This document shows positions 774-64,000 of a DNA stretch of 64,000 nucleotides, in pieces. The position numbers were made by a program, and so were the translations under genes. The stretch is taken from the NCBI RefSeq assembly GCF_009834535.1, contig NC_045696.1:79300001-79364000 (forward strand). Reading direction: 5' to 3'. The DNA comes from Camelus ferus. Lineage: Eukaryota. The notes below the pieces were generated by a model, which was not told the DNA's origin, ran no database searches, and was given only the letters and a program-made list of their open reading frames with translations. Positions within the stretch are counted from its first letter, which is position 1. Each line of letters starts with the position of its first letter.

Positions 774-790
774 AAGAAATATGAATTTAA
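774..790. repeat. Left copy of 17-bp target-site duplication AAGAAATATGAATTTAA
   Basis: Identical 17-mer at 774-790 and 1880-1896; preceded by TT (TT/AAGA, L1 endonuclease-like site). Confidence 0.9.
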
Positions 791-1020
791 GGGGACTTTA
801 ATCTTGCTAAAAACTTGGAAGGAGGGGTCCCCTGAAGACCAGCTGCAGCCAAAATGGAAGGGATTATATCAGGTATTAATGAGCACCCCAACTGCCGTTC
901 AGCTACGAGCAATTGCTAGTTGGGTACATCTGTCCAGAATAAAACCTGTAATTTATAAACCCCAACAGGAGCCAGGAGAGACCTACACTTGCTAGGCAAT
1001 ACAAGAACTCAGGTATCCTG
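791..1020 (+). pseudogene. pol: ERV pol C-terminal fragment (integrase C-terminal/GPY-F-like region)
   Basis: ORF 804-995 LKTWKEGSPEDQLQPKWKGLYQVLMSTPTAVQL...SWVHLSRIKP matches the class I ERV integrase tail pattern (PxWKGPYxVLLxTPTAVK..WIHxSRVK); similarity appears to continue past a TAG (TYTC*AIQELRY). Confidence 0.88.
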
Positions 1021-1386
1021 AGGCGGTGATTACAAATGTTTAACCACGCCTTTGAAGTCTTTTGTCGTTACAGACTGTCAGACTGCTGTTACAAAGGTGC
1101 TTCATCTTTAAGAAAATTCATCAAAAGTCAATAAAAACAGTGGGTTACAGCAGCCCCACATCAGATAATGGCTGTGTGAGGATTCCAGCCCACACCCTCA
1201 GCCCTCAGATGCAAAAACAAAAAGCTGGCCTGCCCCTGAGGCCCCTAGATTAGACATTCAGAGATTTTTTTACTCCCTGATAGGCAGGGTCAACGCCTCT
1301 ACTCAGCCAGTAAGCAGCTCCAGAAGATGGACCTTCGCCCCTCTGCACCCCCATAAGATTATGGGAGTAAAATCTTTGAGGGGGGA

Positions 1387-1861
1387 TAAGACAGGAAGGG
1401 GGCAGGGCACAGCCATTCAAGGAATGCTACAGCAATTAACATCAAAATGGTGAAAGGTTCAACCCCCAGAATGCCTTGAGGCTCAGGATGATGAGAGATT
1501 TTGAGCTTCATTATACGCCCATTGTAATATATTAACATGGTGAATAACACGCCCACAGGCACCAGGGAAGTCCCAAGGCTAGTCACAAAAGGCCACAGAG
1601 TGGGAAATGGCCAACTTCCTGGGAATCCCAGCCCCTTCCCCGGGCTACTTAGACCTGTCCTTCCACTTAATTAGCATATGAAGCCACTAAGCCCATAAAA
1701 ACTATCCACAGGGCACCTCGAGGCTGCCTCTCTCTCTCCATTCAGCCTACACTCTGTCTATGGAGTGTGTACCTATTTTCAATCTGAACACCCAACCCCC
1801 ACACCTCGTGGCCTTTCTCTTGCCTTTCAATGTATCTCCCTGAATAAATCTACCTTTACTC
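1387..1861 (+). mobile_element. ERV 3' LTR, U3+R portion only (no U5)
   Basis: Starts right after the polypurine tract (taagacagg, probably decayed TGAGA...), TATA-like CATAAAAA at ~1694-1701, AATAAA 1843-1848, terminates 13 nt later into the A-tail. Confidence 0.8.
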
Positions 1862-1879
1862 AAAAAAGAGAAAATAAAA

Positions 1880-1896
1880 AAGAAATATGAATTTAA
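1880..1896. repeat. Right copy of 17-bp target-site duplication AAGAAATATGAATTTAA
   Basis: Exact match to 774-790, directly after the A-rich tail. Confidence 0.9.
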
Positions 1897-3909
1897 ATAT
1901 ATAAGAAAATTTGATTTTGTGTAAATTTGAAAAGCACAATATTTATAACTTTGCTCTATTCTGTTTTTAAACAAAGTACCTTCTAAAATTTTATTACTCA
2001 ATATGAGAAGATATGAACAAATTTGATTTTTACTTCATTATAATGAAAAGCATTCTTTCAAATTAAAAATATTGTCTACTGTACACTACTTAGGGTGAAA
2101 ATAAATTAGTCAAAACTTTGACATCTACATAAGGGAAAATTAAAATGAGTCAATAATCTTTTGAATCTCTTCTCTGAAGCACACATTTATTTGACTAATA
2201 AAAATGTACCACAGATATTTTTCCCTCTCTGGTCAATAGTAATGATCGGTATATTTGTCAAAGTGAACTATAGAATTTTTGGAAATAAGATTACACTTTT
2301 CTGGTTTTTGGTAAAATTCAAGACTGAAAAGACTGAAAGTTAATTATAACATGTTAACGTTTGAATGCTCAGCTATTTAAAGATGTGCATATAAATATGT
2401 ATGTGTGTGTATATGTATAGAATTATAATATTTAAATTTGTTTCCCCATCTTTTTCCTCAAAGGATTCTCATTCTTACAATACAGCATCTACAAAATAAA
2501 TGTGTTTCATAAATATCAAAATTTATTTTTAAAATTTAAATCAGGTGTAAACATTCAGACTAACAAGTTTAATGTTGTTACCTTTTTTTTAAACAATATT
2601 GAGTTCTTGTAGGGTAAGGTATTAATAATATTTCAGATTCTAGAGTCCTGTAAAAGGCTCAATAACTATTTGAAAGACATGAATGGAGAAATGAATGAAG
2701 CTCAAATTATCCAATTACTAGCTTTTATTTTTAAAATACAATGTCACGCATAAACCTTGTACAACTCAAGTCCTCAGTTTTTCCCTTAAGTTCTTATTTA
2801 TTTAAGGAGTATTCCTTTAGCCCATCAACTGAAAATGAAGGAGTTCAAAGTGGCCATGTAGGAAGACCTTAAACTCACCTCTTCCCTTGGATGCAACACA
2901 TTTATAGCTACCTATTTTTTCTCTGAAAGAGAATAATTTTTCTCTGAAAAGGACCTGAGGAGAAAATGAACAGTGCCTCTACAATGAAAAACAAAAGATA
3001 TGCATCAAGAAGGGTAGGAGAGTCAGAGACATACCCTTACTCAGACCCCACCCCAGATGGGGTGACCTCATAACTAGGAGGGATCCCCAAAATAGAGAAC
3101 TCTCCCTCTAGGACTGAAAGAATTATGTCCCACATGAAACACCCAAATCTGAGAAGCTGAGACTAGAAAGATGAGCTTCCAAAAGGTCTGGTTTTGAAAA
3201 TCAAGAGATTTTGACAAGGAGAATCATAGCCTGATAGGGAAGAGAAATCTTGGTGTTAAAGGGCTTATGTTCAAATCCACTGGCCCTGAGAAGCTCCTAT
3301 ACCATAGGTGAGGGAGACACACTTACTAATTTTAAAGCAGCTGTCAGACAATTAGGGACCAGCAGGGACTTTATCTGAGGATGAAAGCACTGATAGATGT
3401 CATTTTTACAATCTCATCTTAATTTGCTGGTTATGGAGCCTACAACTGCCATTGTTGGTGTCCCCTCTCTAAGTCTTCTAGCACTGGAGGGAGAGCTATG
3501 CCCATCCCACATCACAACCAGGCAGAATGAGTGCCCTGAGCTCTACCCTCCCAGTAGCTGAGCTTCAACTGGGCCAGGCAAATATCCAAGCCCTGCCTAC
3601 CCTATGTAAAAACCTAGCTGTAACCAGACAAGTGACTTGAACTCCATCCTGATGCAATGACTGTGCCACTAATCTGGCTGGGAGAGTGCCCTGAGCCCCT
3701 GCCTCCCTGCACAGCAGTCATGGCCCTCTCAGCCAGTGGATCCATCTAACCCACATGAGGGATGTCCATAGAGTTCCTAGCTCTGGTGGCCAGGGCAGAT
3801 TGTTCTTCTGGGCTACACAGATCAGCTCCTATATAGACAAATCCTTCAAGACTGAGAGCGGTCACCATTTCAGCTAATACATATAAACAGACACAAAGAG
3901 ACAGGCAAA

Positions 3910-4791
3910 ATGAGACAGAGAAATACATTTTAAACCAAACAACAAGGCAAATTCCCAGAAGAAGACTTTATGTAATGGAGATAAGCAACCAATCTTATAA
4001 AGAGCTCAAAGTAATAGTTATAAAAATGCTCAGCATTCTTGAGAGAAAAATGGATGAACACAGTGAGAACTTCAACAAAGAAACAGAAAATATAAGAACA
4101 TACTAATATAAATTATAACTGAAGTGAAAAATAAAGTAGAGGGGTTCAACAGCAAAATGGATGAAGTAGAAGTACAAATCATGGAGCTGCAAGAGGAAGC
4201 AATGGAAAAACACCCAGACAGAGCAGCAACATGAAAAAAAAGAAAAGAAAAGAAGTGGAGATACATTAAGGGATCTCTGAGACAACATCAAGTGGAATAG
4301 CATTTACATGATAGGGGTCCCAGACAGCGAAGAGAGAGAAAAAGGACCAGAGAAATTATTTGACAAAATAGTGGCCAAAAATGTCCCTAATCAGGGAAAG
4401 GAAACAGACATCCAGGTTCAGGAAGCCCAGAGAGTTCAAGACAAGATAAACCTACAGAGAAACACATCAAGAAACACTATGATTAAAATGGTAAAATTAA
4501 GAATAAAAAAAGAATCTTAAAATAAGCAAGTGAAAATCAATTTATTATGTACAAGGGAAACCCAATAACATTTTTTGCAGATTTCACAGCAGAAACTTTA
4601 TAGGCCAGAAGAAAGCAGCATGACAGATTCAAAGTGCTGAAAGGAAAAAACTGCCAGCCAAGAATTTTCTCCTGGCAAGGTCATCATTCAGAACTGAAGA
4701 AGAGATTAAGAATTTCTCAGATAAGTAAAAGCTAAAGCAATTTATTATCAATAAATCAGCTTTACTGACTCTGTTAAAGGGACTTCTCTAA
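3910..4791 (+). pseudogene. L1 ORF1p remnant
   Basis: Fragment MIGVPDSEEREKGPEKLFDKIVAKNVPNQGKETDIQVQEAQRV is the L1 ORF1p RRM region; ends LKGLL*; multiple stops and frameshifts. Confidence 0.9.
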
Positions 4792-5266
4792 GCTAAAAAC
4801 AAATGACACTAAATAATAATTTATAAAGCATACAAAAGTAAAAATTTCAATGAAAAAGGTAAATAAAAAATAAAGGTAGTGGATCAATCACTTCTAAAGC
4901 AAGTATGAAAGGTAAAAGAGAAAAGTAGTAAAATTAAGTAAGATAATAATTACTACAGGGTACATAAAATAAAAATATATAAAATGTGTTATCAAACATA
5001 AAAAATGTGGCAGTGAAAGTAAAAATACAAAACTTTGGTAAGTGTTCAAAATTAAGTTATTATTAACTCAAAAAGGATGCTATGTACTTGAAATATTTTG
5101 CATGAACCTCATGCTAACCACAAAGAAAAAATTAGAATAAATACACAAAAGAAAATGAGAAAGGAATCTAAACATAACACTAAAGAAGACGATCAAATGA
5201 CAATAGAAGAGAGACAGAGAAGAAACAGAGAGAAACTACAAAAACAGCCAGAGCATAATTTACAAA

Positions 5267-8200
5267 ATGGCAATAAGTACATATCAATCAATAATTACTT
5301 TAAATGTAAATGGACTAAACTCTCCAAACAAAAGACATAAGATGGTTGAATGAATAAGAAAATGAGATCCTTCTGTATGCTGCCTACAAGATTGACTTTA
5401 AACCCAAAGCCACTCACAGGCTGAAAGTGAAGGGATGGAAAAAGATATGCCATGCAAATGGACACAAAAATAAAGCTGATGTAACAATACTTAGAGAAAT
5501 GGACTTTAAAACAAAGACTCTAACAAAAAAAAAGGAATTACATAATGATAAGAGAGTATTACATAATGATAAATGTAAACATTTTTGCACACAACATAGG
5601 AGCACCTAAATATTTAAAGCAAATATTAATAGGATTAAGGGGAGAAACTGACAGTAATACAGTAATAGTAGGGATCTTTGACACCCAATTACATTAATGG
5701 ATATTTTAACCATATAGAAAATCAATAAAAAACCTTGGTCTTAAATAACACATTAGATCAGATGCACTAAATTAATGTGTACAGAAAATTCCATCCAAAA
5801 CAGTCAAATACAAATACTATTCAAGTGCACATGGGACATTTTTCCACAATAGATCACATAATTAGACCACACATGCACACAAAAAAAAACTCAGTAAATT
5901 TAAGAACATTGAAATCATATCAAGCATTTCTTACCATAATGGTATAAAAGCAGAAATCAATTATAAGAAGAAAACCAAAAAAAGCACAAACACATGGAGA
6001 CTAAACAACAATAAACAACCAGTGGGTCAATGAAGAAATCAAAGAGGGAATCAGAAAATATTTCAAGACAAATGAAAGTGAAAACACAATGTATTAAAAT
6101 ATTTGGGGTTCAGCAAAAGCAGTTCTAAGAAGGAATTTCATAGCAATGCCTGCTTAACTGAAGAAACAAGAAAAATCTTAAGTAAGTCTAAATGACATTT
6201 AAAGGAATTAGAAAAAGAAGAACATATAAAGCCCAAGTTAGTAGAAGGAAGGAAATAATAAACATGAGAGTGAAAATAAATAAAATCAAACCAAAAAAGA
6301 AAGAAAACATCAATAAACCTAAGAGCTAATTATTGAAAAGACAAACAGAATTGACAAACTTTAGCCAAAGTCATCAAGAAAAAAAGAGAGCCAAAATAAT
6401 CAAAATTAGAAGTGAAATAGTAGAAATTATAACCAATACCACCACAGAAATACAAAGTAACATAATAGAAAACTATATACAAGGATAATTCAACAAATTA
6501 GACAACCTAGAAGTAATGGATAAATTCCTAGAAACATATAATCCTCAAGACTAAATCATGAAGAAATAGAAAATCTTAACAGACCAATTACTAGTAATGA
6601 AATTGACTCAGTAGAAAAACAAACAAACAACAACAAACCTCCAAACAAACAAAATTCCAGGTTCAAATGGCTTCACATGTGAATCTATCCAATATTTTAA
6701 AAAGAGGTAATACTTATCCTTCTCAAATTATTCCAAAAAATTGAAAAGAAACACTTCCAAATTTCCAAAATTTTACAATGCTGCCATTACCCTGATACCA
6801 AAAGCAGTCTGAGACACTGAAAAAAAAAAAAAAAAGGAAAAAAGAAAAAAAGATAGGTCAATATCCCTGATGAACATAAATACAAACATCTCAATAAAAT
6901 ATTAGCAAACAAAATATAATAATACATTTAAAAAGATCATACACCAAGATCAAGTGGGATTCATTCCAGGGATGCAAGGATGGTTAACATCTACAATCAA
7001 TCAACATGATACCCCATACTGACAAAATGAAGGATAAAAATTATATGATCATCTCAATAGGTACAGAAAAAAACATTTGACAAAATTTACATTCATTTAT
7101 GATAAAATGTATCAACAAATGGGTACAGAGGGAACATGTCTCAACATAATAAAGGCCATATATGACAAATCCACAGCTAACATTATTATACTCAGTGGTG
7201 AAAAGCTGAAAGTTTGTTCTCTAAGATGAGAAATAAGACAAGGATGCTCACGTTCATCACTTTGATTCAACATAATATCAGTAGTCGTAGCCACAGCAGC
7301 CAGAAAAAGAAAGAAAAGATACTCAAATTGGAAAGGGAAAAGTACAACTGTCACTATTTGCAGATGACAATATTATATATTAAAAATAATCCTAAAGACT
7401 ACACTAAAAAAGCATTAAATAAATTCAGTGAAGTCTCAGAATACAAAATTAATATACAGAAATATGTTGCACTTCTATACACCAATAATCCATCAGAAAG
7501 AAAAATGAAGAAAACAGTCTCATTTACAACTGCATCAAGAAGAATAAAATACCTAGGGATAAATTTAACCAAGGAGGTGAAAGTCCTGTACTCTGAAAAC
7601 TATGAGAGATTAATGAAAGAAATTGAAGATGACACAAATAAATGGAAAGACAGTCCATGGTCATGGATTGCAAGAATTAATATTGTTAAAATGTCCATAC
7701 TGTCTCCAAACAATCTAAAGATATGATGTTATCTGTATAAAATTCCAATGGCAATTTTCACAGAAATAGAATAAATAATCCTAAAAATTTTATGAAACCA
7801 TGAAAGACCCCAAATAGCCCGAACAATCTTGAGAAAGAAGATCAAAGCAGGAGGTATCATGCTCCCTGATTTCAAAATAAACTACAAAGTCATATAAATC
7901 AAAACAGGACAGTACTCATTCAAAAACAGACACACAGATAAATGGAACAGAGTAGACAGCCCAGAAATAAACCCAGGAACATACGGTCAATTAATCTACA
8001 ATAAAGGAGGCAAGAATAAACAATAGGGGAAAAGACAGTTTCTTCAATAAGTGATGTTGAGAAAACTGGACAGCTATTTACAAAAGAATGAAACTGAACC
8101 ACTTTCTTGCACATAACAAACAAGCAAACAAACAAAACTCAAAATGGATTAAAAACTTAAATGTAAGACCTGAAACCATAAAACACCTAGAAGAAAACTT

Positions 8201-8917
8201 AGGCAGTATACTCTTTGGCATTGGTCTTAGAAATATTTTTTGGATATGTCTCTTTAGGCAAGGGCAACAAAAGAAAAAATAAACAAATAGGAATACATCA
8301 AACAGCCAAGGAAACCATCAACAAAATGGAAAGGAAACCTTCTGGATGGGAAAAGATATTTGCAAACCATGTGTCAATAAGAGATTGATATTCAAAATAT
8401 ACAAAAAACATATACAACTCAATATATTAAAAAATACAATCTATTAAAAATGCACAGAAGAACTGAACAGACTTTTTTTCAAAGAAAACATGCAGATGGC
8501 CAACAGGTATATGAAAAGGTGCTTAGAAGCACTAATTATCAGAGAAATGCAAATCAAAACCACAGTGAGGTACCACTTCACACCTGTTAGAATGGCTATT
8601 ATCAAAATGATATGAAATAACAAGTGTCGGTGAGGTCGTGGAGAAAAGGGAAGCCTTGTGCACCGTTGGTGGGAATGTAACTTGGTACATCCACTGTGAA
8701 AAACAGTATGGAGTTTCCTCAAAAATTTAAAAATATAACTATCCTATGATCTAGCAATTCCAATTCTGGGTATTTATCTGAAGAAAACAAAAATACTAAT
8801 TCAAAAACATATAAGCATCCCTATATTCATAGCAGCATTACTTACAATACTCAAGATACGGACACAACCTAAGTGTATGTTATAGATGAATTGATAAAGA
8901 AAAAGATGTGATTATTC

Positions 8918-8950
<33 letters not shown>

Positions 8951-9104
8951 TATGTATATAATGGAGTATTATTCAGTCATGAAAAATAATGAAACCTTGC
9001 CATTTGCAATAACATGGATGGACCTAGGTGGTACTATGCTATGTGAAACAAGTCAGACAAAGAAAGAGAAACACTGTGTGATTTTACTTATATGTTAAAT
9101 CTAA
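5267..9104 (+). pseudogene. L1 ORF2p remnant (APE endonuclease + reverse transcriptase + C-terminal region)
   Basis: Starts MAISTYQSIITLNVNGLN; KGWKKICHANG; RT motif LFADD at 7354-7368; [13 protein letters not shown]...[20 protein letters not shown]; many disabling mutations. Confidence 0.93.
8918..8961. repeat. (TA)n(CA)n microsatellite inside L1
   Basis: Direct reading. Confidence 0.9.
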
Positions 9105-9223
9105 AAACAAAACAGGTACAGACTCATAGATACAGAGAACAAACTGGTGGTTGCCATAACAGAGAGGGGTCAAGGGATGGGTGAAACAGGTGAAGGGGAT
9201 TAAGAGTTAAAAAATTCCTCCTA

Positions 9224-9268
9224 CACAACACTGTAAAATGATTATAAATCAATAAAAAAATGTTAAAA
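9224..9268 (+). mobile_element. Extremely 5'-truncated younger L1 3' terminus nested in the old L1 3'UTR
   Basis: 'cacaacactgtaaaatgattataaatcaataaaaaaatgttaaaa' flanked by near-identical 14-mers aaaaattcctccta (9210-9223) and aaaacttcttccta (9269-9282). Confidence 0.75.
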
Positions 9269-9689
9269 AAAACTTCTTCCTATAAAATAAATAAGCTACA
9301 AGAACTTAATGTACAGCATAGGGAATATAGTCAATAATATTGTAATACCTTTGTATGGTGATAGATGGTAATTACACTTATGGTGACATTTTGTAATGTA
9401 TAAAAATATCAAATCACTATGTTGTACACCTGAAACTAACATGATATTGTCTGTCAATTATAATTCAATAAAAAAATTGAAATGAGTGAATTTACCATTG
9501 CTCTGCAGTCAAGAAAAACTGCTCTACAGTTTTCTAGAATTATGATATGCCTCAATGTGCTCAAATACCCTAATCATCATGACTGCATTTAAGTTTATAG
9601 ATTTGTTTTTAAATGATGGCATATGATTGCAAAATTAAGATGAGTCACAAAGATAATGAAGTTCCTCATTTTCTATTCAGTTTAGAAGA

Positions 9690-60770: not shown

Positions 60771-61832
60771 CACAGCCACAGAAATGCACACAATACTTCT
60801 AGATCGACATTCAGTTCACTTTTTAACGCTGCCTGAATGCAGGAACCAAATAATACACTGTGGCTCTTAACAAATGTCAGATTAGAAAGTAAAATGACCT
60901 GTATTACTCTGTGCCCTCACAGATTTCCACTGCTCACTCTCTGTGATCAGCCTCGGTCTCAGTGCCACTCCAAACCTAGAACGAGTGCTGTTCCTACCGC
61001 AGGGCAATGTAAAGAGCTGTTCTTCAATATGTTGGGTGACATCCAGTCTCCTTGCCAGTCAGGTTCTTGTCCCTCATCTTACCTCCTTGGGTAGCTGGGC
61101 TCCCATTTTAAGGGGATTCCACCTTGGTAACACACGAGAGCAGCCATCATACTTAGTGGGTACCCCTAAGAACAGGTAAAAGATAAGAATGATAGAGATG
61201 ATGCCACCCCACCGAAGGACAGTTCTCTTCAGCCTCCATTTTTAATTTAACCCTTTGGTTAACTTGAACCTAGAAATATGAAAATAATGAGCCTTGCTGC
61301 CTTCATACATTAGCAAAGAAAACAGACATGGAATAAGTGGCAGCTTTAAGAGTCTGTTTCATTGAGGGACTTCTTTTCTTTATGCTCTATATTTTGACTT
61401 AGGAGATTGCCATTTACCTCTCTGACTTGAAACTCAAGTTACACACTAATTTTTCTCCCCCATCACCAGAAACAAACTAATAAGCCCACTGTTGGTTCTA
61501 AACCAGACAAAATCTGAACTGGGATATCTGTGATATATTATCCTGAATCATTTAAATTTTAAAAAGATGGCCTGAATGAGCTCAACAATACTAGATGCCT
61601 CTCATAAAATCAATACTATTATTCCTCCTACGAATGTTTGCATCTCTTGATTTTGTGTTTTTCCTGTTTCCTCAATTTAGAATACAGCCATCTACCAAAC
61701 TTCTTATCTTTGTAGGTAAATATTGAATAATAAATGTGTATAATAAGTGAGAATCTGAGTTCTAGAGTCTCAAGCTCATAGCCCATGAGAGTGTTTAGTT
61801 TCACTGCCTTAATAATTTAAAAGAGGTCTAGC

Positions 61833-61972
61833 GGGGAGGGTATAGCTCAGTGACGGAGTGCGTGCCTTGCATGCACAAGGTCCCGGGTTCAATCCTCAGT
61901 ACCTCCATTAAAGATAAATAAATAAATAAACCTAATTACCTCCCTCTCCCCACCAAAAATAAAAATAAATAA
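61833..61972 (+). mobile_element. tRNA(Ala)-derived SINE, camelid Vic-1 type
   Basis: 'ggggagggtatagctcagtg' (A box), TGC anticodon-like loop, 'gggttcaatcc' (B box), then (AAAT)n-'cctaattacctccc' body and A-rich tail; degenerate TSD aaaagaggtcta (61819-61830) / agaagatttcta (61975-61986). Confidence 0.85.
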
Positions 61973-64000
61973 GTAGAAGATTTCTAATGGGAGGCTTTTA
62001 GGACGTATGTGCACTCCCAGGTCACCGCAGAAACCACGAGCCTCTGTTTTCCTAAGGGCTACCCAATCTACTCTCTCATGGTACTTAACTGGTTCTTGTT
62101 ACGCTTTTGAATTTGCGAAGTCTGAATTAGATGCCCCTAAAGGTATGTATTACCTCCAAAGTGTCCCAGGGATAAAGGGACTTCATTGTGAAAAGATCCT
62201 CAGTTAACAAAAAATTTACAGATACAATTAAAAATTTAATTATTAAGGTTTCATTAATTTAACAAAAGCCCTGCTATCAGAGACACTGCATTTGTGTGCT
62301 GTGAGGCAGTCTGTGTTGCAGACCTAGATTTACAGACTACTATACATACCTCAAGCTTTAGAAAATTACATTACCTTTAAGCAAGATGACTCACCTTTAA
62401 TAGGTAATAATTGGAAATAATTCAGAAATACTGCTTTTAAAACTTAGTTTAAGGTACTTAAATGCTGAAAAATTAGACTGTGCTAGACAGTCAAGTAAGA
62501 AAGAAATGCATGAATCCTCGGGAATCAATGCAGAGATTTTGTTATTTTTAATGTGAGTAGGAATACAGCTAATAATAGAGCATTAATGAAATGGTAAACC
62601 TGGCAGTAGTGAGATTCCAGAATCTACAAGGTTCCAAAGAAGTCAAGAAGGGCGTGCTGGGCAGCGTGTTGGTACTTTTCTATTTTATGTAAGGCTAATA
62701 CTTTCTACTGTATCTTTTGGTATATTAATTTAAATTTTCTTACAGATTAAATATCAGATTAAAAATATATTCATTCATTAAATATTTGAAAATCCATAAT
62801 TTGTTGTGTCTACTGAATGTCAAATTTAATAAAGACATGTCTATCATCAGTTTGGCATGTTACAAAAGCAAAAGTAACTTTAGATGGACAAATAGTTAAA
62901 ATTCAACATATACGTATTGCATTAGGTATTTATGTCTTTAAAGTCTATCAATGCCTTAGCTTTTAAAATATTATAAAAGTACTAAAAACACAAAGAGTTT
63001 GTAAAATGTAGAATCCACCCTCATGGAAACTACTGTCTACAATCTGATTGATTGTTAGAACACTATGCTTCTAACGCTTCCTATGCTTTTCTAGATATAT
63101 ACACGTCTACCGTGTTATTGGTATACGAGCATATATGAATTAGTTATTAGTCCTTTTAGACAAATACTTAGACTCTCCTAACTGGGGCATACACCCATAG
63201 CTGTGAATTATTTGGTATGCTTCGTGACTTTGACTTGAAGATTTTCTCAGTAACTATATGCCGTACAAATATGTTAAAAAAGAAACAATACTACAACTCA
63301 ACAGAAATCACATTAGACAGAAACCTTGGTTTTAAAACAAAATTAAAATTCCAAATAATGCATTGGTTTAAATATAAAGCCTTCTTTTATTATATGAAGT
63401 GCGTATAGTTTAAAATTAGTGCACTAGACATTATTATCATTGAGATATTTCTGGCATTATCTAGTTGATTTCTGTGAAATACAGTCCAGTGCTCCACGTG
63501 TAAGCATCACCACCTCTGGACTCAGGGGAGGTGGGCCCCTGGGCCCTGTGTTTTACACGGCCTCACTGTAGCCCCCTGGCATTCTGCCCTCCTCAAGTGA
63601 CAAAGAACCTGCAGGGCCAAACGGGTGTGTCCACCTGTAGCTTATGGTACCTTTTCTAGACCGTTCTCCAAGATACCTAAAACTCTGGCATCTCCTGCTC
63701 TAATGCTCCTAAACTTAATCCAGGACCTTGGAGACCTCTTTCCCGCTCCGTCCTCCTGAAGGTAGAATACTCTGCTGATGTGTGTATTTCTAGACCAGAG
63801 GGTTGGTCAAGACAGTGCTTCGGGGGCTGGGAAGTAGTGGTAAAGGACTCAGAAATATGGTTCATGAGAACTGGAGCACAAAATCCCTCGTGCTGTAGCA
63901 CTGAGCAGGGGGTGGAAAAGTGAAGCATCAGGCCACAGGTCTGACACGCAAGTCCAAGAGTTTGAATTCTGAATTCAAACCTGCACCTCTAGGTCATGAT

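Follow-up and report, generated by a model that had tools for sequence, protein, structure and literature searches.

The locus described here lies on the + strand, near the start of the 64,000-nucleotide stretch of DNA that was analysed as a whole (the window). An insert at window positions 791-1879 is bracketed by an exact 17 bp repeat that reads as a target site duplication (TSD), with the 5' copy at 774-790 and the 3' copy at 1880-1896. As judged from its coding remnant, the insert is a 5'-truncated fragment of a class I (gammaretrovirus-like) endogenous retrovirus (ERV), in which the tail of pol is followed by a short interrupting segment, a stretch too short to hold an env gene, a polypurine tract, a long terminal repeat (LTR) and an A-rich tail. 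The GC content of the insert is 0.47, compared with 0.29 and 0.26 in the two flanks, and the 64-kb window contains no second copy of it.

Recurrence of the locus in public sequencing runs

Fifteen of 24 listed public sequencing runs, with three organism labels, contain half or more of the words of positions 300-2700, and the contigs of four runs (X1, X15, X16 and X18) were matched to positions 500-2200 at 80% likeness. Runs X18-X20 contain 0.06-0.07 of the words; X18, an RNA run, covers sequence of the ERV family with no cover of the flanks. In X1 and X15 the flanks have single-copy depth (7-14). Relative to this, depth in X1 is 30-320 times single copy in bins internal to the element and approximately 900-15,000 times in LTR bins, values that are not to be read as a copy number.

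The 5' junction is bridged by contigs from three runs (X1 record 1, X15 record 9 and X16 record 17), all of which end at 836, 46 letters into the insert. On the 3' side, positions 1840-2200 are matched with no other letters by X1 record 8 and X15 record 16. These bridging contigs have 40 letters to the left of the point where tail meets flank, which passes the 31-letter rule, and only 22 LTR letters to the left of the point where LTR meets tail, which is under it. Overall, X1 and X15 reproduce the flank junctions with 0-1 other letters, as does X16 in part; these runs come from different studies, and the insertion is common to runs of organisms A and C (two species labels). An assembly artefact is favoured by nothing more than the repetitive nature of the insert, no listed contig covering its full stretch; recurrence of the flank junctions under two species labels and in separate studies argues against this, and such an origin is extremely improbable.

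Among the matched runs, those covering the flanks carry the insertion, and no joint skipping 791-1896, the signature of an empty site, is present among the 15 of 158 joints listed. One contig, X16 record 23 (1866-2062), is identical to the tail and the 3' flank and then runs on leftward for 178 further letters with no second piece listed; because it includes the tail, it is not the empty site. At position 1839 the X15 locus contig is clipped and that of X1 ends at 1840; the difference from the family at this position may be an allele of the individual from which the window derives rather than a fixed change.

Composition of the insert

The insert opens with a 5'-truncated tail of pol (791-1016), predicted to encode the C-terminal domain of integrase. 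The reading frame is open from 792 to 995 and is followed by a stop and a few pol-like codons. Its translation matches the Pfam family PF18697 (MLVIN_C) with an E value of 4.2e-12 and a score of 46 bits (cut-off 29.2), the match spanning approximately 837-950. In total, 394 protein relatives were found at E<=0.001, the best four of which are 61-69% identical, and none of 48 cluster members of the homologous proteins bears a name. As judged from this MLV-type domain, the insert is identified as a class I (gammaretrovirus-like, ERV1) element, in keeping with the ERV1-like identity proposed in a first-pass annotation of this DNA.

Homology to the integrase relatives begins at the first codon past the TSD, with position 792 corresponding to residue 38 of the homologue P0001 (67% over 64 amino acids). 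Comparison of the residues lying further upstream in the homologues with the 5' flank gave no match, the best local scores being 12-33 in 18 of 19 homologues (the 19th has too few upstream residues for this comparison). Since these upstream residues are absent from the flank, the cut in the element lies within the integrase tail, and the abrupt start within integrase coding sequence that had been remarked on at first pass is borne out.

The tail of pol is followed by a segment of approximately 87 nt (1017-1103) that interrupts the expected C-terminal motif of pol and is absent from the first-pass annotation. Homologue tails align on either side of it weakly (local scores 13-26, suggestive only). 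Depth over the segment is approximately 30 times single copy, and two contigs (X1 record 5 and X15 record 11) cross it, showing 19 gap letters; further records end at 1015 or begin at 1082. Since the segment is found in some other copies of the family, it was probably already present in the parent provirus, and it probably marks a subfamily. The segment also contains short internal repeats, with splice-site-like words near its ends. Rfam analysis of 700-2000 returned four matches, all with E values of 3.6-6. One of these places the plant C/D snoRNA snoU36a at 1021-1102, nearly the extent of the segment, with 16.4 bits where the cut-off is 45 and an E value of 0.59 when the short stretch is taken alone; it was taken as chance.

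Between the end of pol and the polypurine tract lie approximately 270 nt (1104-1377), too few for an env gene. Translation in three frames gave no meaningful Pfam match (only Bim_N, E 0.07). Positions 1200-1330 may resemble the cytoplasmic tail of Env, for which Pfam gave no confirmation. Other copies of the family traverse 1104-1377 (X1 record 6, X15 records 12 and 14, X18 record 24), and since these are diverged copies the parent of the insert is placed in an env-less group. That splicing had removed env was considered and judged unlikely, because diverged genomic copies traverse the same stretch. The polypurine tract itself (1378-1386) lies directly 5' of the LTR start.

Within 1124-1254, eight of the nine listed differences from the family majority are sense-strand G-to-A changes, mostly in a GA or GG context; across the whole insert, the 40 of 346 difference rows listed include ten G-to-A and six C-to-T changes. 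This patch, picked after the fact from the same 40 of 346 rows, could reflect APOBEC3 editing.

The ends of the insert and the R/U5 boundary

Within the 64-kb window, the pair 774-790/1880-1896 is the sole non-homopolymer exact pair of at least 17 bases spaced no more than 7 kb apart, the remaining complex or part-complex exact pairs listed at that spacing measuring 15-16 bp. In 5000 random pairs of 60 nt drawn from the window, shared words ran to 14 letters at most, and none of the pairs reached 15. Directly 5' of the first 17-mer is TT, giving a site of the L1 endonuclease type, TT/AAGA (772-777), that has a single mismatch to the consensus TT/AAAA given in PMC5537654. The perfect 17 bp duplication preceded by TT, as noted in the earlier annotation, is therefore exact and lies beyond chance.

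At the other end, the LTR (1387-1863) comprises U3 and R only. It has a TATA-like word at 1694, a substitution in its first dinucleotide and a polyadenylation signal AATAAA at 1843-1848. From the end of this signal to 1861 there are 13 nt, and the tail begins 13-15 nt downstream, which is the canonical distance. The tail (1862-1879) is an eroded poly(A) tract in which 15 of 18 letters are A and three are not; its first two A residues are also the family letters. As the family letters still match to 1863, the template-derived 3' end lies at 1861-1863, which refines the stop 13 nt past AATAAA (1861) recorded at first pass together with the A-rich tail.

The limits of the LTR were next compared with those of other family members, as judged from depth and from the loose ends of contigs. 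Before 1389/1394 there are many contigs with mutually unlike loose ends (114 and 72 in X1, 118 and 83 in X15, 79 in X18; agreement 0.38-0.56), and the LTR start is set at 1387 on this basis. Beyond 1863, in contrast, the loose ends are conserved (30 contigs in X1, 28 in X15 and 14 in X18; agreement 0.81-0.89) and G/U-rich. All of these counts are of the rows listed, and those listed for X16 include none at 1863. Other family LTRs thus continue past 1863 in one conserved sequence, read as U5, which indicates that this copy stops short of U5, at the poly(A) site. It had been proposed from the window that family LTRs would run past 1861 and that the end of the insert maps the R/U5 boundary; the conserved continuation supports both proposals and is at odds with an LTR consensus that ends naturally at 1861. 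The boundary is located from contigs, which do not reveal RNA ends. The absence of U5, together with a TSD of 17 bp rather than 4-6 bp, does not fit an ordinary provirus or a solo LTR. Among the family LTRs, joints and loose ends also point to subfamilies that differ by blocks at 1424-1501, 1641-1750 and 1766-1840.

Neighbourhood of the insert

The window around the insert contains other repeats. A decayed L1 on the + strand (approximately 2840-9475, its ends set by eye) begins 0.9 kb downstream; its ORF1 matches Pfam with an E value of 1.1e-7, and it has a degenerate flanking repeat of its own. The 5' flank was considered as a possible old L1, a reading not retained, as its matches to the neighbouring L1 were all A-rich and tblastx at E 0.05 found none. 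A tRNA-derived SINE, which we take to resemble the camelid Vic-1, lies at approximately 61831-61990 (Rfam tRNA match at 61836-61907) and is single-copy by blastn in the 64 kb. Wider searches gave 15 pattern matches in IMG/VR, none of them confirmed, and no match to the LTR motif in JGI metagenomes; in a protein scan of JGI metagenomes 1 of 331 was confirmed, a match of 15 amino acids (L001; blastn E 0.02) that was judged uninformative.

A proposed route of insertion

The duplication, the endonuclease-type site, the tail, the loss of U5, the 5' truncation and the presence in independent runs are all direct observations. Taken together, the reading that best accommodates them is that an ERV transcript was processed at its LTR and copied into the genome by L1, to which we assign a probability of roughly 0.8. 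In this model, RNA polymerase II would have transcribed through a class I ERV that had no env and a damaged pol, and the transcript would have been cleaved and polyadenylated at the LTR AATAAA, at the R/U5 boundary. The ORF2p protein of L1, which we infer to be the enzyme responsible, would then have nicked the AT-rich TT/AAGA site and primed reverse transcription there, on the poly(A) tail of the RNA. Reverse transcription would have halted after approximately 1.07 kb, within the integrase tail, and a second nick, staggered by 17 bp, would have given rise to the duplication. This order of steps is presumed. The product would be a processed, defunct copy of an ERV RNA and, as it has no 5' LTR, primer site, gag, reverse transcriptase or U5, it would not move further by the retroviral route.

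L1 exists in the lineage, as the decayed near-full-length copy approximately 0.9 kb downstream attests, and target-primed insertion by L1 of a polyadenylated RNA of some kind is very probable. A route not involving L1, either capture of ERV cDNA or DNA during repair of a break or a provirus trimmed by deletion beside a separate 17-mer and A-run, would suit the very AT-rich flanks (GC 0.26-0.29) and the lack of an empty site among the 15 of 158 joints listed. It would nevertheless need four independent coincidences, namely exact 17-mers on both sides, termination at the poly(A) site, an A-tail and an endonuclease motif; moreover, retroviral integration would have retained the U5 that is present in family copies. 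Such a route is very unlikely.

The identity of the source RNA is a separate matter. The same L1 chemistry could have acted on an RNA that came from elsewhere, in the form of an orphan 3' transduction in cis from an L1 lying upstream or of read-through from a host gene or lncRNA ending at the LTR. Because 5' truncation strips away the promoter, every hallmark fits such a read-through RNA equally well, and the family LTRs are very abundant and can act as poly(A) sites. Against this, approximately 600 nt of internal ERV sequence are colinear with the LTR, as in the 3' end of a provirus, and the insert holds no L1 or host sequence, blastn against the L1-containing window giving nothing better than E 0.7. 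An RNA from elsewhere is accordingly judged distinctly unlikely, and it is likely that the source was the ERV's own transcript, presumably started at the ERV promoter. The claim made at first pass, that L1 mobilised the ERV RNA in trans, is thus upheld as regards a processed copy that lacks U5 and carries the hallmarks of L1; its further element, an origin in trans from the ERV's own transcript, stays at the level of a likely reading, the 5' end being lost.

Age of the insertion

The unmutated TSD had been taken as a sign of a fairly young event, a view not supported by the divergence from the family, the decayed tail and the two species labels. An exact 17 bp pair would survive with a probability of 0.38 at 2.8% divergence per copy and of 0.12 at 6%. 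At 30 of 1073 positions (2.8%; 39 of the 40 of 346 rows listed lie in the insert) the letter of the insert is not that of the family majority, a difference being scored where more than 80% of the X1 family depth carries another letter than the window. Of 11 long family pieces from X1 and X15, ten differ from the insert by 8-16% and one by 7%; a twelfth, with 2 differences in 216 nt, is probably the locus itself and was left out. The parent or a subfamily may account for some of the differences. At 7 of 20 sites examined, at least one run has a depth of the non-family letter no more than twice single copy, which speaks against a parent of nearly identical sequence.

For divergences of 2.8-6%, an alternative rate of 2.2e-9 gives 13-27 million years. 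With 5e-9 per year, a value derived from PMC8605555, they correspond to 6-12 million years. The age of the insertion, which is shared by two species labels and has a decayed tail, probably lies between several million and some tens of millions of years.

One copy or many

Whether the locus has sisters bears on its wider significance. In X1, positions 1868-1924, just past the LTR end, have a depth of approximately 140 times single copy, and X18 also covers them with no cover of the flank. Expressed against the last LTR bin, depth past the LTR end is 0.6-0.9% in X1, X15 and X18 and 3.8% in X16. In addition, the contig of this locus in X15 breaks off at 1838, a distance of 31 letters from the first non-A of the tail with that letter counted in; a 31-mer graph would behave in this way if a second path of LTR plus A-run existed. 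The excess depth and the contig stop hint weakly that A-tailed sisters exist. Both are explained equally well by look-alikes rich in A or by an allele whose A-run is longer, the region being 68% A.

The family as a whole looks mainly retroviral, as judged from an LTR depth approximately 10-100 times that of the internal region, many unlike 5' flanks and LTR ends that are alike in depth (94,578 near the 5' end and 116,922 at the 3' end in X1). That the env-less ERV1 family has many L1-made copies, tens to hundreds, all ending at the same poly(A) site, is a tentative and rather unlikely proposition.

Discussion

The closest precedents at scale are the HERV-W processed pseudogenes, which make up 135 of 213 loci (PMC5016936), and the hallmarks listed for L1-made HERV-W copies in PMC5537654 and PMC5016936 match the locus. 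Common to both are a 3' LTR of U3-R structure, a poly(A) tail, a TT/AAAA-type site, a long TSD and class I identity; HERV-W copies have also frequently lost their 5' part, and the locus is likewise 5'-truncated. In contrast, the locus belongs to another host lineage (a mammal, probably a camelid as judged from the SINE likeness) and another LTR family, its parent is env-less, it is the only processed copy here, and its TSD of 17 bp is 2 bp longer than the upper end of the 5-15 range quoted for HERV-W in PMC5537654. According to the same review (PMC5537654), HERV-W is the sole human group mobilised in this way at scale, the determinants being unknown, and PMC6995185 reports no such copies for ERV-W of New World monkeys.

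The best match in scale is provided by an L1-made copy of HERV-K(HML-2) RNA at 2q32.1 and by a HERV-H case cited with it in PMC3590776. These share with the locus a solitary occurrence, a TSD, a short poly(A) tail, a shortened 3' LTR and an otherwise retroviral family. The HML-2 copy differs in that, as described there, it came from a spliced mRNA and is transcribed, whereas the locus has no splicing shown and the RNA run X18 gives no flank cover. The first-pass statement that this route is known for HERV-W and uncommon elsewhere consequently holds in part, the route being less exclusive to HERV-W given the HERV-H and HML-2 cases (PMC3590776).

Among camelids, the ORF-less ERV1 clusters of alpaca (PMC8605555) resemble the locus in being class I, short and probably non-autonomous; they are likened to it by description only and, unlike it, are two-LTR elements. 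The term 'processed pseudogene' is absent from the main text of PMC8605555, as is 'processed' from that of PMC6675863. PMC11727581 and PMC12350158 added nothing further, and the titles and abstract openings searched yielded no camelid or other non-primate L1-made ERV copy. This kind of element is already known from HERV-W, HERV-H and HML-2, and the locus is a well-supported further case.

As a single locus it is ordinary, as L1 can copy any polyadenylated RNA and the copy is inert. It does fix the poly(A) site, and hence the R/U5 boundary, for an LTR family that is very abundant; it also shows that an env-less member of that family was transcribed in the germ line. If the family has many such copies, a second, non-primate family would have been heavily mobilised by L1, and the question of why L1 took up HERV-W RNA would become testable by comparison.
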